Made by a program: the position numbers and the translations under genes. The notes beneath the pieces were generated by a model, which searched no databases, had not been told where the DNA came from, and saw only the letters and a list, made by a program, of their open reading frames with translations. 64,000 nucleotides of DNA from positions 1,667 to 65,666 of the forward strand of contig CAZYWP010000004.1 of the NCBI GenBank assembly GCA_964651495.1. The letters run 5' to 3'. Source of the DNA: an uncultured Eubacteriales bacterium. GTDB lineage: Bacteria; Acidobacteriota; Aminicenantia; Aminicenantales; UBA8522. Positions 1,018 to 40,200 of the stretch are shown in pieces; within the stretch, counting starts at the first letter, position 1; each line of letters opens with the position of its first letter.

Positions 1018-2589
1018 TCACAGCAGTCCCTTTTTCGCTGCGGCGATCATTTCATCCCTGTACTCCTTGAGCCCGGGAATGGGGAGGCTGATGAAGATGG
1101 CGTCCCGCTCGTGGAACTTGCAGAAGATCTCGCAGGCCAGGCATTCGGTGCACTTCCCCTTCCGAGCCTCCTCCTCCGGAATCGCCAGGACGGGCTTTCC
1201 CTCCTCGAGCTTCAGGATTTTCGGGCCGCAGGCCTCGACACACCCCTTGGTCCGACAGTGGGGGCATTTGGCCTGGTCGAAAGAGATCCGTCCGGTGAAC
1301 GTGTCGAAGCCGTACGCATTCTCGGGAACGGCCGTCTCCGTGAGCGGCCCGACTTCATGGCGGCGGCCGGGCTCCTGGGCGACAAGTGCGTCCAGCCGGC
1401 CGGCGCAGAATTCCGGGGAGTCGTCCCGCCCATAACCTTCGATGACTCCGGGAATATCGCGCCCGTACGTCTGCAGGATCTCGATGGCCTTTTCCTCGAA
1501 ATTCCCGCCCAGCCGGATGACCGCAGGGATTTTTAAATTTTCCTCGTGAAAGGCCTTGACCAGGCCGCGGGCCGAATGGTACTGCTCCTGGCTGGCGACG
1601 CCGGAGCCTGAGGCGAAGTAGCCCCTGATCCCCGGTTGCGAGAGGATGATCTTGGCGGCGCGGTAGACTTTACTGGCCGGCGGGTTGCCGCTCGTGTCGC
1701 AGTAGTTGGCCAGCTTGAAACCGCGGTTGAGGACGGCATCCATGGACATCATCGACCCCCCGCCGCCGGCGCCGTGGAAGCCAATGTACATCTCTCCGCC
1801 GGCGGTGTTTTCCGTCATCTGAAAAAAGTAAAAGGTCCCCCGATAATCCTTTTCCTCGACCCGGTAGGCGATTTTTTCCAGCTCGGTCGGCGGCCGGTCG
1901 AACTCCCGGGCGACCTCGATGCCCAGCTCGGGATGACGGTAGACCGCGTAATCATCGACGACAAGATGGCAGTCGGCGGCATAAACCGCGTCATCCGCAG
2001 TGACCACCAAAGGGTTGATTTCGGCCGAGCGGGCATCTCCGGCGCGCGCGACCTGGTAGAGTCTCATCAGCAGGTCGGAGAGCCGGAGGAGAAGATTCCC
2101 CCCGATTCCGGCCCGGATGAGCAGGTTGCGGGCTTCATACTCGGGAAATCCTTTCCGGACGTCGACGGCCTGCCGGACAATTCTTTCCGGATGCAGCCGG
2201 GCGATCTCTTCGATCCCGCTTCCGCCCGCCGGGCTGAAAACGATGAGCGGCCGCTTGAGGGCGTCATCCAGCACGATCCCGGCAAAGAATTCGGCTTTGA
2301 TGGCCAGCTTTTCTTCGACCAGGATTTTGTCGACGACAAAATTTTCAACCCTCATCCCGAGAAGCTGCCGGGCTTTCTCGGCGGCCTCGGCCGGGCTAGC
2401 CGCGAATTGGATTCCCCCCAAACCGGCTCTCCCGGTCACCCAGACCTGAATTTTCAGGACGACGGGCTTGCCGATCCTTTCGGCGATTCGACGGGCCTCC
2501 TCGGGAGTGGAAGCAACATCGCCGTCCGGGACCGGGATCCCGCCCTGCTTAAGCAGCTTTTTGCCCTGGAATTCAAATAGCCTGGCCAT
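1018..2589 (-). CDS. SucC-like ATP-grasp / CoA-ligase beta subunit fused to a C-terminal 2x[4Fe-4S] ferredoxin-type domain
   Basis: 523-aa ORF. The N-terminus MARLFEFQGKKLLKQGGIPVP and the GFHGAGGGGSMMSMDAV region resemble SucC-type beta subunits. The last ~90 aa carry CPHCRTKGCVEAC and CTECLACEIFC cysteine clusters. ATG at 2589-2587 with AAAGGA upstream. Confidence 0.8.
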   Translation of the reverse strand: MARLFEFQGKKLLKQGGIPVPDGDVASTPEEARRIAERIGKPVVLKIQVWVTGRAGLGGIQFAASPAEAAEKARQLLGMRVENFVVDKILVEEKLAIKAEFFAGIVLDDALKRPLIVFSPAGGSGIEEIARLHPERIVRQAVDVRKGFPEYEARNLLIRAGIGGNLLLRLSDLLMRLYQVARAGDARSAEINPLVVTADDAVYAADCHLVVDDYAVYRHPELGIEVAREFDRPPTELEKIAYRVEEKDYRGTFYFFQMTENTAGGEMYIGFHGAGGGGSMMSMDAVLNRGFKLANYCDTSGNPPASKVYRAAKIILSQPGIRGYFASGSGVASQEQYHSARGLVKAFHEENLKIPAVIRLGGNFEEKAIEILQTYGRDIPGVIEGYGRDDSPEFCAGRLDALVAQEPGRRHEVGPLTETAVPENAYGFDTFTGRISFDQAKCPHCRTKGCVEACGPKILKLEEGKPVLAIPEEEARKGKCTECLACEIFCKFHERDAIFISLPIPGLKEYRDEMIAAAKKGLL

Positions 2590-2611
2590 TCAATCGTCCT
2601 TTACGGGTAAT

Positions 2612-2640
2612 ATTATTGGAATAAAAGGAGCTGAAGTCAA
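2612..2640 (-). promoter_or_regulatory. Candidate sigma70-type promoter of the sucC-like gene
   Basis: Minus strand TTGACT (2640-2635), 17 nt, AATAAT (2617-2612), about 22 nt upstream of the ATG. Pattern match only. Confidence 0.45.
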
Positions 2641-2698
2641 CGTCGGAGAGGGCCGGATGATCGCTTTAAGGTCCGGTCCTCCAGGTTATTCGATGGAA

Positions 2699-2874
2699 GC
2701 ATCTCTGTTTCTGTGATTTGACTCGACGGCCAAGAGAGGGTGGCATGGCGCCAGTCCCCGCACCGCCCGGAGCGTAGGGGACCCCTCTCTTGACGGGTGC
2801 GGAGCGAGGACGGACGGGGACGCGCCGTGACAGGACCCTATTCCAGATCTATGTCATCGCGGAAACAGAGATGC
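2699..2874 (+). repeat. 176-nt structured intergenic repeat, copy 1 (MITE-like element or structured ncRNA)
   Basis: Differs from 39976-40151 at 6 of 176 positions with no indels, while the flanks are unrelated. 19-nt terminal inverted repeat GCATCTCTGTTTCTGTGAT / ATCGCGGAAACAGAGATGC. Several internal GC-rich helices. The strand is assigned only tentatively. Confidence 0.85.
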
Positions 2875-2878
2875 AATT

Positions 2879-3730
2879 TTATTCGATCCAGATTTTGATC
2901 ACTCGGGCCGGGGTCTCCTTGCTCCGGATTTCGATGATATTCCCCTTCATCCTGATGATCTGATCGACGATCCTATCCAGGTCGTATCCTTCCTGCCTGA
3001 GGGCGGCCTTGTCCTTTTCCGGAATCGCGCTCAGGGCCAGGTCGGCTAGCGCCCAGGGAATGCTGAGGTCAAAGGCCGGCTCATCCATGCCCCGGACCGA
3101 GACCCGGATCTTCAGCATTTTGGCGCGCCTAGACGTTCCTCTGTCTTCCACTTCCCTCAGTGAATCCGGTGAGATCCGCAGCAGGGCGATCCTGGCCCTG
3201 TCCTTGAAATCCATGTCTCTTTCCTGCTCGATGATCTGCTTCAGGACGGGGATGGCACGGGCGGCGATCTTTTTATCCTTCACCAGGCTCAACTTCAAGG
3301 CCGCATAATAGCGAACCTTCGAGCTGGGACTGAAGAGCCTCTCCTCGATTTTATCCAGATAATCCTTCTCGCCGTCATTGTAATAGAGATCATAGGCCAG
3401 GTCGATGATTGAAGTTTCCGCCTCCTCGACCAAGCTCTCGTTTTTCTCCGGCGTGAAGAGATAGTCTTCATAAGCCCTCAACGCTCTTTCCTGTTTGCCG
3501 TCCTGTTTCCCAAGGCACTTGGCCCGGTAGAAAATCGCCTGCGGTAACAGACGGCTCCTTGGATACTCCGCCAGGAGCTCTTCCAGCTTGACCTGAGCCT
3601 CCCCCCATTTTTCATCAAACAGGAGGATCTTGGCCTCCTGGAAGGCTTTTACTTCGGCCTGAGTTTGGGCGCCCGACTGAGCGCCGAACAGGCCAACCAA
3701 AAACACGATGAAGAAAAGCGCTTTCCGCAT
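2879..3730 (-). CDS. Secreted TPR/HEAT-like repeat protein, function unknown
   Basis: 283 aa. Signal-peptide-like N-terminus MRKALFFIVFLVGLFGAQSGAQ followed by helical repeat-like sequence. Starts 1 nt after the anti-sigma gene stop, so probably the same operon. Confidence 0.6.
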   Translation of the reverse strand: MRKALFFIVFLVGLFGAQSGAQTQAEVKAFQEAKILLFDEKWGEAQVKLEELLAEYPRSRLLPQAIFYRAKCLGKQDGKQERALRAYEDYLFTPEKNESLVEEAETSIIDLAYDLYYNDGEKDYLDKIEERLFSPSSKVRYYAALKLSLVKDKKIAARAIPVLKQIIEQERDMDFKDRARIALLRISPDSLREVEDRGTSRRAKMLKIRVSVRGMDEPAFDLSIPWALADLALSAIPEKDKAALRQEGYDLDRIVDQIIRMKGNIIEIRSKETPARVIKIWIE

Positions 3731-3731
3731 C

Positions 3732-4529
3732 TCAGACCTCGCTTTCCTGCAATTCCTTTTTTAACAATTTAATTTTTAAAAGCAGATTTTTCTGTTCGAT
3801 CAAGCCCTGGATCTCCCGTCGCTGCTCGTCAGTCAGGCTCTCGCTGACCGGGGAGAGCTCATAGAAGAGCATCTCGATCTGGTCGCAGATGTCTTTCGCT
3901 TTGGCCATCTGGATCCACTCGAGCTGGGGGTTGAGGAATTTTTTCTTGGACAGCAGCTCCCTGGCCCGCTGCGCCGCCGCCTCGCTTAGCCGGAATGGTC
4001 CTGCTTCAGCGGCAGGCTGGGCTAGTTCAAGGAGCACGTACTGGCTTTTTTCCAGGTAAGCCACGGTCTCCCGCCTGGCGATCTCGATGTCCGCCCGGTC
4101 CAGGAACTCCTGGGAAGCGAAGAATTCCCCGCCCCCCGCGTTCCGGCTGAGGCTTCCCCTGAAAACGAAGAACATGGACAGCGCCCCAACCATGACCCCG
4201 AGAAGAAGGCCCGCCAGGACCGGCCTGAACCGGAGAGCGGAGACCCGGATCCGGCGCCGCTCCAGCACGGCCTGCGGCTGGGGCCGATCCCGCCAGACGG
4301 CCCGCACGATTCTCTCCGCCTGAAAACCCCAGTCCACTGAGGCCAGAACCCGGTCCAGCTCGGGATTGAGCACCTCCGCCCGGCGGAGGACTTCCCGGTG
4401 AAGACCGAGCTCCCGGCGGCAGAGCGGGCAGTCCTTGAGATGAGCCCGGACTCTCTCCGCTCTGCGCTCCTCCAGCTCTTCGCCGAGGAAGGCGACCAGG
4501 TCATCCCTGATTTGGCGGCACGTGCTCAT
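3732..4529 (-). CDS. Anti-sigma factor (zf-HC2 type, single-pass membrane)
   Basis: N-terminal H-x3-C-x2-C motif (AHLKDCPLC). One hydrophobic segment (VLAGLLLGVMVGALSMFFVF). The start overlaps the sigma-factor stop (ATGA). Confidence 0.75.
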   Translation of the reverse strand: MSTCRQIRDDLVAFLGEELEERRAERVRAHLKDCPLCRRELGLHREVLRRAEVLNPELDRVLASVDWGFQAERIVRAVWRDRPQPQAVLERRRIRVSALRFRPVLAGLLLGVMVGALSMFFVFRGSLSRNAGGGEFFASQEFLDRADIEIARRETVAYLEKSQYVLLELAQPAAEAGPFRLSEAAAQRARELLSKKKFLNPQLEWIQMAKAKDICDQIEMLFYELSPVSESLTDEQRREIQGLIEQKNLLLKIKLLKKELQESEV

Positions 4530-5107
4530 GTTTCCATCCCCAATTGCGGGCCCAGCAGACGGCGGAGATTCCGCACTGCCTTGAAATGAAGGGACTTGAC
4601 CGTCCCCAGCCTGACGTTCAGGATCTCCGCGATTTCCCTGTAATCGAGCCCGTTATAATGCTTCATGACAAAAACCAGGCGCTGCCGTTCTCCGAGCCGT
4701 TCGAGACCGTGGGAGATGACCCGGCGCAGATCCAAGGACACCGGGTTTGCGCCGCTGCCCGAGGAGGCCAGGACGAGCTCGTCGAGGGGCTTTTCGCTCT
4801 CCATCTCCCGGCGCCTGGCGTAATGCTTGCGGTAATAATCGATGCACAGGTTCTTGGCGATCTGGAGCAGCCAGCCACGGAAATTCCCTTCTTTCTCGTA
4901 GGCGTCGAGCTTCTGATAGAGCCTCATGAATGTCTCCTGGACGATGTCCATGGCATCCTCCTTGTTCCGGAGGACGGAGTAGGCCAGCAAAAAGACCTGC
5001 TGCTGATAATGGAAGACGATCGTTTTGAAGGCTTCCCGGTCGCCGCTTGCGGCCTCCCGAAGCAGAGATTGGATGTCTTCACTTTCCGTTATCCTCGTCT
5101 GTTCCAT
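4526..5107 (-). CDS. ECF-family RNA polymerase sigma factor
   Basis: 193 aa. Region 2-like FMRLYQKLDAYEKEGNFRGWLLQIAKNLCIDYYRK and region 4-like YREIAEILNVRLGTVKSLHFKAVRNLR. Confidence 0.9.
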   Translation of the reverse strand: MEQTRITESEDIQSLLREAASGDREAFKTIVFHYQQQVFLLAYSVLRNKEDAMDIVQETFMRLYQKLDAYEKEGNFRGWLLQIAKNLCIDYYRKHYARRREMESEKPLDELVLASSGSGANPVSLDLRRVISHGLERLGERQRLVFVMKHYNGLDYREIAEILNVRLGTVKSLHFKAVRNLRRLLGPQLGMET

Positions 5108-30375: not shown

Positions 30376-30448
30376 GGCGAGGTAGCTCAGTCGGTAGAGC
30401 GAGGGACTGAAAATCCCTGCGTCGGCGGTTCAATTCCGTCCCTCGCCA
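30376..30448 (+). tRNA. tRNA-Phe (anticodon GAA)
   Basis: Manual cloverleaf fold. Acceptor GGCGAGG/CCTCGCC, D arm GCTC-AGTCGGT-AGAGC, anticodon arm AGGGA-CTGAAAA-TCCCT, T arm GGCGG-TTCAATT-CCGTC. CCA is not encoded. Confidence 0.95.
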
Positions 30449-39530: not shown

Positions 39531-39934
39531 CGCTTTTTTATGACCATCACCCGGCAGAGTTCACGCCTGCAACCCTCGCACCAGTCGGCTTTTTTGACCA
39601 TCGAGGCCGGGATAACGTCCGCCTCGCGGAACCCGAACCTGGCAAAATAGCCCGGGATCACCGTGGCTAGATAGATTTCAGCTTTGACCGCCCTGAGAAG
39701 AGCGCGGACCAGACGCGTCCCCAGCCCGCGGCCGCGCCGGGTCCCCTCCACGCCGAGCGCGCAGAGCTCCAGGCCGTCAGGGTGCTTTTTGAGCCCGCAG
39801 ATGCCGAGGACCTTCTCCCCGTCTGCCGCCACCCAGAAATCATCCGCGGCCATGCCCGCGTAGTCAAGATTCAATCTCTGAGCCAGGGTGAGGATCTGAG
39901 GAAAATCAGGCTGACGGGCTTTTCTGATGCGCAT
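39527..39934 (-). CDS. GNAT-family N-acetyltransferase
   Basis: Acetyl-CoA motif RRGRGLGTRLVRAL. I prefer ATG 39934 (MRIRKARQPDF). The track start at 39979 lies inside the repeat element. Confidence 0.8.
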   Translation of the reverse strand: MRIRKARQPDFPQILTLAQRLNLDYAGMAADDFWVAADGEKVLGICGLKKHPDGLELCALGVEGTRRGRGLGTRLVRALLRAVKAEIYLATVIPGYFARFGFREADVIPASMVKKADWCEGCRRELCRVMVIKKR

Positions 39935-39941
39935 CGCCGCT

Positions 39942-39950
39942 ATTATAACA
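39942..39950 (-). promoter_or_regulatory. Candidate extended -10 element of the GNAT/DUF2156 operon
   Basis: Minus strand TGTTATAAT. Only 7 nt (AGCGGCG, no SD) lie before the ATG at 39934, which is consistent with a leaderless mRNA. There is no good -35. Confidence 0.4.
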
Positions 39951-39975
39951 TGATTAGCGCGGGCTGCTCGCGGAG

Positions 39976-40151
39976 GCATCTCTGTTTCCGTGATTTGGCT
40001 CGACGGCCAAGAGAGGGTGGCATGGCGCCAGTCCCCGCACCGCCCGGAGCGAAGGGGACCCCTCTCTTGACGGGTGCGGAGCGAGGACGGACGGGGACGC
40101 GCCGTGACAGGACCCTATTCCAGATCTATGTTATCACGGAAACAGAGATAC
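39976..40151 (+). repeat. 176-nt structured intergenic repeat, copy 2
   Basis: Same length and orientation as 2699-2874, with 6 substitutions. Terminal inverted repeat of 17 perfect bp (ATCTCTGTTTCCGTGAT / ATCACGGAAACAGAGAT). Confidence 0.85.
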
Positions 40152-40171
40152 GATTGCTGCCCGCGGCAGGT

Positions 40172-40200
40172 TTGACAAGAAAGGGACGCTGTAGTATACC
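40172..40200 (+). promoter_or_regulatory. Candidate pgsA promoter
   Basis: TTGACA (40172-40177), 17 nt, TATACC (40195-40200). Only 8 nt (TCAGAAAA, no SD) lie before the ATG at 40209. Confidence 0.45.

Follow-up and report, generated by a model that had tools for sequence, protein, structure and literature searches.

The window analyzed here is a 64,000-nucleotide (nt) stretch of DNA from an uncultured bacterium labelled Eubacteriales, whose GTDB lineage is Acidobacteriota; Aminicenantia (assembly GCA_964651495.1, contig CAZYWP010000004.1, positions 1,667 to 65,666). It contains two copies of a GC-rich, self-complementary repeat. Copy 1 adjoins the last gene, encoding a 283-aa protein, of an apparent ECF sigma/zf-HC2 operon, while copy 2 sits between the divergent GNAT and pgsA promoters and interrupts neither. 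A preliminary description of the same DNA had offered two identities for the repeat, a miniature inverted-repeat transposable element (MITE) or an unrecognised structured RNA family. We report here that each repeat is very probably a 184-bp non-autonomous DNA transposon with terminal inverted repeats (TIRs), i.e. a MITE, that has inserted recently with a transposase supplied elsewhere, and that the element encloses a conserved hairpin core that also occurs without the TIRs.

Results

The preliminary description had placed the two copies at 2699-2874 and 39976-40151, each 176 nt long and set in unrelated DNA, and this is borne out: the two stretches are equal in length, align without a gap and differ at 6 positions (2712, 2721, 2775, 2855, 2859 and 2873), with the 100-nt flanks outside the two copies showing 22% and 27% identity. 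The 19-nt TIRs reported for them are also present; this 19-nt sequence has 4 matches in the window and no others even with 3 mismatches, vs. 0.03 in shuffled sequence. The true unit is larger, however, because the repeat runs 4 nt further on each side, giving full elements of 184 nt on the + strand at 2695..2878 (copy 1) and 39972..40155 (copy 2) with 8 differences between them. The base at this extended terminus, 4 positions outside GCATC, is G in 75 of the 92 independent family ends, which fixes the terminus and yields a 23-bp inverted repeat with the consensus GRAAGCATCTCTGTTTCCGTGAT, conserved across the family. The left TIR of copy 1 (GGAAGCATCTCTGTTTCTGTGAT, + strand) covers 2695..2717 and its right TIR, reading AATTGCATCTCTGTTTCCGCGAT on the - strand, covers 2856..2878; the corresponding TIRs of copy 2 are GGAGGCATCTCTGTTTCCGTGAT at 39972..39994 (+ strand) and, on the - strand, AATCGTATCTCTGTTTCCGTGAT at 40133..40155. 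Open reading frames (ORFs) in this region are mechanical ones crossing the element edges (2468..2716 and 2790..2963), none being contained in the 184 nt. The element folds better than its shuffles on both strands, with -88.8 kcal/mol (z -5.3) for the + strand and -80.8 kcal/mol (z -4.2) for the - strand.

Directly outside these bounds, 9-bp direct repeats bracket both copies, so that the target-site duplication (TSD) for which the preliminary description had suggested looking does exist in the window. For copy 1, the 9-mer TTATTCGAT is found at 2686..2694 and again at 2879..2887, matching at 9/9 positions and including, on the right, the stop codon of the - strand coding sequence 2879..3730; for copy 2, GCTGCTCGC at 39963..39971 and GCTGCCCGC at 40156..40164 match at 8/9 positions. 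In the family as a whole, 9 of 25 complete elements have flanks matching at 7 or more of 9 positions at the 4-nt-extended boundary, and when this boundary is shifted by 1-3 nt either way (six offsets), none of the 25 reaches that level. More direct evidence of movement came from contig L003, which stems from a different sample and was retrieved by look-up of the exact pgsA protein. It encodes the identical pgsA protein in DNA that is 97-98% identical to the window, and precisely the element and one 9-mer are missing from its GNAT-pgsA spacer, leaving an empty site with a single ACTGCTCGC. The orthologous site is likewise empty in L039, which is syntenic with the window at ~69% identity. A similar exact look-up of the ATP-grasp protein, for the empty site of copy 1, returned no record. 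Five short-read contigs from 3 samples all end inside the element, as is usual at multi-copy repeats; the MITE thus accounts for the breaks that short-read assemblies of these genomes show at element sites. The element therefore has defined boundaries, TIRs, a 9-bp TSD, a presence/absence polymorphism and many relatives. It is the conjunction of TIRs, a 9-bp TSD, an empty site in a near-identical strain, many dispersed copies and the lack of an ORF that identifies it as a MITE, and the preliminary description was right in kind on this point.

Further copies in related organisms, also proposed as a check at the outset, proved numerous, with about 150 relatives from public scans in Aminicenantes-type metagenome-assembled genomes (MAGs) and metagenomes. 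A genome scan with the TIR, covering one genome per species, returned 56 loci, comprising ~30 family members, ~20 coincidental matches in ahcY and others due to chance, and a metagenome scan with a 19-mer from the window interior returned at least 120 loci. The ~30 genome loci lie mostly in MAGs labelled Candidatus Aminicenantes, Saccharicenans or Acidobacteriota, many of them at contig ends, with a few in MAGs labelled Eubacteriales/Clostridiales and one in Nitrospirota. L039 (CAZKEW010000001.1, 'uncultured Eubacteriales bacterium') shows synteny with the window across >7 kb, with a nucleotide identity of 67-72%, and so does L057, an Aminicenantes MAG contig. This shared synteny suggests that the window comes from an Aminicenantes-like organism and makes some MAG labels doubtful; several family-bearing MAGs may have been wrongly labelled 'Eubacteriales/Clostridiales', and the apparent cross-phylum spread may be an artefact.

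The same 23-bp TIRs enclose more than one kind of interior, namely the window type, a ~225-nt type B (L013, L017, L033, L047 and L050), a ~175-nt type C (L053 and L057) and others (L029). Type C is a diverged homologue of the core described below, as judged by covariance model R1 (50 and 27.7 bits). Chimeras (L009, L084, L094 and L152) carry only the 3' arm of the core, some with a left half resembling type B, and such mosaic interiors point to recombination between family members. We also noticed pairs of cores in the same orientation 190-290 nt apart (L021:4298-4704, L088:6704-7007, L104:6343-6671, L149:8370-8705 and L167:2231-2625), which could reflect repeated insertion at one hotspot or local duplication. 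As for the ahcY matches, the TIR pattern GCATCTCTGTTTCYGCGAT also fits, on the reverse strand, the conserved sequence that encodes the N-terminus of S-adenosylhomocysteine hydrolase in many Proteobacteria (loci L015, L016, L026, L027, L032, L035-L037, L043, L046, L055, L056, L059 and L060). We discarded the ~20 proteobacterial matches of the TIR scan, which encode the AhcY N-terminus (IAETEMPGLMALRE); they are coincidental and a contaminant of scans by pattern.

Alignment of 92 non-redundant element ends (L007-L183) on their terminus revealed a spacing rule. TCAA, which reads TTGA in the direction leading out of the element, has its first base at -24 in 22 of the 92 ends and at -23 in 5 more, vs. 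a mean of 0.56 and a maximum of 3 at other offsets; the geometry is thus element end, 9-bp TSD, 7 nt and then TTGA(C/A/T). The hexamer is found on exactly one side in 13/25 complete elements and on both sides in none, and either element end can face it, the left one 9 times and the right one 10 times. Within 16-18 nt past the hexamer, the best match to a -10-like box averages 4.3/6 positions and is 4 or more at 18 of 22 ends, compared with a mean of 3.0/6, and 4 or more at 22 of 70, for ends without the hexamer. This enrichment suggests that most such hexamers are -35 boxes of predicted sigma70-type promoters reading away from the element. Gene 5' sides are also enriched among the flanks (81 vs. 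58). Given that selection after random insertion would not produce a spike at a single offset, we infer from the spacing pattern that the transposition machinery itself does the targeting.

Both window copies display this spacing. At the right end of copy 2, GCTGCCCGC is followed by GGCAGGT and then by the promoter-like site TTGACA-N17-TATACC (40172..40200, + strand) upstream of pgsA, with the -35 starting 16 nt past the element end. The pgsA promoter is conserved in L003, L039 and L057, and in L057 (6870-7200) the end of a type C element lies 16 nt from the TTGACA of the orthologous pgsA promoter; independent insertions of type A in the window and of type C in L057 at the same pgsA site are the most economical reading. 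At copy 1, a TTGATC hexamer (2895..2900, + strand) likewise lies 16 nt (9-bp TSD + 7) past the right end. The preliminary description had regarded the placement of copy 1 after a stop codon as telling. Copy 1 does adjoin the stop codon, but with the 184-nt bounds it abuts the TAA (2879-2881, - strand), itself within the duplicated 9-mer, rather than lying 4 nt beyond, and this placement is incidental, the positional rule being a fixed distance from the TTGAC hexamer. On the other side of copy 2, the GNAT gene starts at 39934 on the - strand, and TGTTATAAT, an extended -10, lies 7 nt upstream of its ATG (39934-39971), which suggests that the GNAT mRNA may be leaderless or near-leaderless.

Conservation within the element is concentrated in a GC-rich core of ~100 nt and is far lower in the linkers and TIRs. 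When 46 elements of standard length are aligned, the core arms GGGTGGCAYGGCGCCAGTCCCCGC ... GCGAGGACGGACGGGGACGCGCCGTGACAGGACCC are almost invariant, whereas most positions differ in the ~20-nt linkers between core and TIRs; the core apex occurs in three main versions, sometimes with large nested hairpins. RNAalifold predicts a rod of four helices. Covariance model R1, built from 48 cores, matches only the two copies in the window, at 2738..2838 on the + strand for copy 1 (101 nt, 75% GC, 104.9 bits, apex type iii) and at 40015..40115 on the + strand for copy 2 (104.6 bits). The four helices listed in the preliminary description are all exactly complementary, and its long-range pairing of GGCGC-CA-GTCCCCG with CGGGGACGCGCC (2747-2760 with 2815-2826) corresponds to conserved helices P2 (2744-2751 with 2822-2829) and P3 (2754-2760 with 2815-2821) on the + strand of copy 1, both of which covary across homologues. 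The proposal of a switch based on competing helices is not supported. The local helix CAAGAGAGGG/CCCTCTCTTG needs a linker found in the window copies only and does not occur in the nearest homologues sharing the apex (L072, L075, L076, L122, L173, L175 and L176), and the orientation of the core relative to flanking genes, as detailed below, is random.

Covariation in a homologue alignment, which the preliminary description had suggested examining, was assessed by counts of paired cells in 35 sequences, including diverged bystander copies. The counts supported the core helices, with 90.6% of cells paired vs. 81.3% in column shuffles (0/500 reach the observed value) and 39-47% in slid controls, and with changes on both sides in 22/26 pairs, although the alignment was fitted to the model and shared ancestry of the sequences means that cell counts overstate independent events. 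Of two pairs not covered by the scan pattern, the one immediately flanking GGGT/ACCC on the outer side is seen in all four Watson-Crick forms and the last P3 pair in G-C, A-U and U-A forms. Compensatory changes convert CCCCG/CGGGG to CCCCA/TGGGG and CCCCT/AGGGG, with TGCCT/AGGCA in L120. On the + strand, G.U pairs number 78, compared with 23 A.C mismatches, which would be wobbles on the - strand, counts that are biased because most of the sequences were selected by an exact 3'-arm 19-mer; the + strand folds better in 51 of 71 copies and the - strand in 19. Mismatches between the TIR arms show no such wobble preference, with 58 transversions, 34 changes giving + strand G.U and 21 giving - strand G.U, a pattern that fits the TIR arms being protein-recognised DNA sites rather than an RNA stem. 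In L070, L080, L086, L108, L121, L124, L151, L164 and L180, a second palindromic module (CGGAGACAC...GTGTCTCCG) is nested in the core apex, enclosing a CCCTCCC/GGGAGGG or a CCCCCTTGA/TCAAGGGGG hairpin. In contrast to the core by itself, most of these copies (L070 is the exception) are more stable on the - strand, by 3-17 kcal/mol. The picture is one of hairpin modules recombining or inserting into one another.

The Rfam search, another of the checks initially proposed, matched no family to the element: at gathering scores over the whole window there was nothing on it, at E up to 10 the element itself had no match, and at E up to 1 four core-only loci had none on the core, the only hit being an unrelated weak match elsewhere in L078. 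The suggestion of an unrecognised structured RNA family is hence partly right for the inner ~100 nt, by covariation and lack of an Rfam match, but not for the rest of the element. A K-turn or an internal loop like that of the signal recognition particle (SRP) RNA was considered and rejected, as the loop has neither the defining GA/AG pairs nor the motifs of SRP domain IV, and the Rfam SRP models are unmatched. We found no conserved internal promoter or intrinsic terminator in the element and its relatives; GTGACA-N17-TATGTT in copy 2 was set aside as a promoter because its -10 is not conserved in relatives. In the 3' regions of upstream genes, 28 cores are sense and 30 antisense, and the downstream gene is sense to the core in 39 cases, with the opposite arrangement in 42. 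This random orientation argues against a riboswitch, leader or 3'-untranslated region role, and we conclude that the core is not a gene-specific cis-regulator of these kinds.

In the neighborhood of copy 1, the apparent operon on the - strand (2879-5107) comprises genes for an ECF sigma factor (4526..5107), a zf-HC2 anti-sigma factor (3732..4529) and the 283-aa protein (2879..3730). The last of these has no Pfam match, and its earlier 'TPR' label is without Pfam support. On the other side, the downstream gene previously described as sucC-like is indeed an ATP-grasp_2/citrate-binding (sucC/ACL-like) gene; its sigma70-like promoter, TTGACT-17-AATAAT (2640..2612, - strand), lies 54 nt past the left end of the element. 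The sole Rfam match in the window is a tRNA at 30376-30448 (71.4 bits, anticodon loop CUGAAAA).

Discussion

Taking these data together, we postulate that a transposase encoded elsewhere, presumably of the DDE type, would bind the two 23-bp TIRs and make a 9-bp staggered cut, the repair of which would give the 9-bp direct repeats. The transposition complex may read the TTGAC-like hexamer, or what is bound there, and cut 7 bp upstream, so that the inserted element would come to lie at about -52, just clear of the core promoter, which would be spared. The least certain step is the role of the core, which might act in one strand, as single-stranded DNA or RNA. It may be a fold-back that aids mobilisation by bringing the ends together in single-stranded DNA; alternatively, it may be an independently spreading or selected RNA/DNA passenger module. 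Carried to its full extent, the proposal would join a promoter-homing transposase, reading the -35 box or sigma70-RNA polymerase, to a core that represents a new class of structured single-strand element, a combination that we consider unlikely as a whole. In its first half, such homing would be a prokaryotic analogue of the safe-haven targeting of Ty3 and Tf1; in its second, bare hairpins would spread by themselves, nest in TIR elements and host other hairpins, serving as a mobilisation cofactor or as a selected small RNA.

MITEs are common, and one more family of them from an uncultured lineage would by itself be routine. If the spacing rule is true targeting, however, it would show how a transposon can increase its copy number in compact genomes while leaving genes intact, and elements at about -52 of many promoters, the region of upstream activator and UP-element contacts, could rewire regulation. 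In addition, the interior is more conserved than the transposase-binding ends, covaries and occurs free of those ends. This is the opposite of what MITEs usually show and suggests that the hairpin module follows a selective or replicative logic of its own.

Several of our results weigh against this interpretation, over and above the limits on the covariation counts already given. Among the 25 complete elements, 16 have 6 or fewer matches in their 9-bp flanks, and the exact TTGA hexamer is found at only about a quarter of the ends. The TTGATC of copy 1 lies inside the 3' end of a coding sequence and is without a -10 box, which, for this one copy, gives a hint that recognition depends on the hexamer sequence and not on an active promoter. 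The core also has a life apart from the TIRs: of the 71 independent core loci, both TIRs are present at 22 and a single TIR at 15, while none is detectable at 34, with the TIR-less cores being conserved at 22.0 of 24 positions vs. 22.3 for the TIR-bearing ones, and the TTGAC peak at the expected distance, found at 10/56 TIR-bearing ends, is absent in TIR-less cores. These cores are therefore spreading or persisting by something other than the TIR system. That they are MITEs decayed in place we reject, as they are equally conserved and lack the promoter-distance peak. Lastly, no autonomous element with the family TIRs was found in the window, in the 183 fetched loci or in the PLSDB plasmids, and both mobilisation in trans and the family of the transposase are what we infer. 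With respect to the TIR-less copies themselves, similarity ends 6-10 nt outside the core; L072, L075, L078, L097, L118, L120, L127, L136, L143, L161 and L183 consist of a bare core with a 6-10-bp covarying basal stem, without TIRs or visible duplication.

The search for a parent insertion sequence (IS) took several routes. In the whole-genome search, TIR pairs up to 600 bp apart were covered. No parent IS emerged from the ORFs inward of every non-MITE TIR match, and there was no candidate among TIR pairs 300-5000 bp apart, among generic inverted repeats ending in GNAAGC and 600-4000 bp apart, or among the ORFs in L169 and L058. BLAST against plasmids with the TIR and with the whole element gave chance-level matches only, and the single match in a scan of viral contigs was a chance coding sequence. 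Since no transposase was found between family TIRs, we do not assign the family to an IS family. The 9-bp duplication is common to the MITE family and to IS4 and ISLre2, which typically make duplications of this length (PMC8024623). IS66/ISBst12 elements, on the other hand, are reported to make 8-bp duplications and have ends starting GTAAGCG / GTAA (PMC11946415, PMC12898284), the inverted repeats of IS66 being 20-30 bp long with GTAAGCG at their start and a direct repeat of 8 bp (PMC11946415). In several family ends, the reading GTAAGCATC... resembles the IS66 terminus GTAAGCG, but the family ends in general, G[G/T/C]AAGCATC, are only a partial match and the TSD is 9 bp, not 8. The TIRs of ISGka4 (GTYGTAWCTATTCAGCCC), the one IS66-like element inspected (from pHTA426), are unrelated to those of the MITE family. 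Descent from IS66 is thus weakened both by the length of the duplication and by the unrelated TIR of ISGka4.

Of the other explanations for our data, a serious alternative to a single-strand function of the core is that the core is a functionless, neutral hairpin, with its conservation and mosaic structure arising from concerted evolution (template switching or gene conversion at a GC hairpin), bursts of transposition and horizontal spread. Much of the family structure would fit this account, including the same TIRs around unrelated interiors (types B and C and L029), the same core with different TIR variants and linkers, the chimeras retaining only the 3' arm (L009, L084, L094 and L152), the foreign hairpin modules nested in the apex and the random orientation relative to genes. 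We nevertheless consider it somewhat unlikely, given that identical or near-identical cores stand beside mostly different linkers on contigs with unrelated flanks, that the frequent changes at paired positions are almost all wobble-preserving or compensated, with disruptive ones being singletons, and that conversion across organisms would require repeated transfer. Another possibility is that the repeat is first of all a structured noncoding RNA gene or a cis-regulatory RNA, with two paralogous copies transcribed from the + strand and the TIRs as their closing stem. Besides the covarying helices (22/26 pairs; 90.6% vs. 81.3%), this possibility draws on the compensatory changes outside the scan pattern, the excess of G.U over A.C (78 vs. 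23), the better + strand fold in 51/71 copies, the retention of the core while linkers vary and the occurrence of core-only copies, and the RNA would be new in that no known family matches. We regard it as quite improbable for the repeat as a whole: the insertion polymorphism with a 9-bp duplication means that the whole unit moves as DNA, the putative closing stem has no wobble preference (58 transversions vs. 55 transitions), core orientation is random with respect to genes, no conserved internal promoter or terminator was found in the element or its relatives, and the competing helix proposed for it is not conserved.

The bare cores raise one more candidate, a REP/REPIN-type hairpin that would be moved by a single-strand transposase (HUH/Y1, RAYT-like) instead of a DDE-type enzyme. 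About half of the core copies are bare ~115-nt hairpins without TIRs or visible duplications, their arms are conserved and the apex variable, and the wobbles are strand-biased, as expected of a hairpin acting in one strand. However, 23-bp TIRs are present in the window copies and at 22 other loci, and 9-bp duplications lie exactly at the TIR termini in 9/25 complete elements; single-strand transposases (IS200/IS605, RAYT) are not known to make such target duplications. Moreover, no RAYT/TnpA gene was seen beside any copy, and the arms, on reading their sequence, are without the short internal palindrome and GTAG-type tetranucleotide typical of REPs. For these reasons we hold a REPIN-type origin of the TIR-bearing units to be highly improbable, and insertion as a MITE remains our preferred explanation for them.

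Comparison with known systems

Correia/NEMIS of Neisseria, ERIC/IRU of enterobacteria and RUP of Streptococcus pneumoniae are bacterial MITEs with a rod-like fold-back structure. The window family resembles them in its size of ~100-200 bp, the lack of an ORF, the presence of TIRs and a TSD, the many intergenic copies, presence/absence polymorphism between strains and the folding of the whole element as a long hairpin. Correia, ERIC and RUP elements duplicate a TA dinucleotide target, in contrast to the 9-bp TSD without a TA rule found here, and the window family is not itself a member of ERIC or Correia, the type to which the preliminary description had likened it. The window family differs further in that no sequence similarity emerged from Rfam, plasmid and phage-type searches, that it targets by distance to a TTGAC hexamer, that its interior is more conserved than its TIRs and occurs without them, and that its host lineage is Aminicenantes-like. 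With REPINs, the core-only copies share a ~100-nt hairpin with conserved inverted arms and a variable middle, an intergenic location and a high copy number; unlike REPINs, the window copies carry TIRs and TSDs, with no RAYT seen and no REP-type arm palindrome.

The closest parallels to the insertion rule come from other types of element. In eukaryotes, Ty3 inserts at the start sites of Pol III and Tf1 at Pol II promoters, and Tn7 inserts, through TnsD, at a fixed distance from glmS; a target set by its distance to a -35 box is, to our knowledge, not described for any bacterial IS or MITE family. The window family has in common with Ty3, Tf1 and Tn7 that insertion occurs at a fixed distance from a gene-adjacent landmark, sparing the genes. 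It differs from Ty3 and Tf1 in element type and host domain, and from all three in that its landmark is a -35-like hexamer and its orientation is not fixed.

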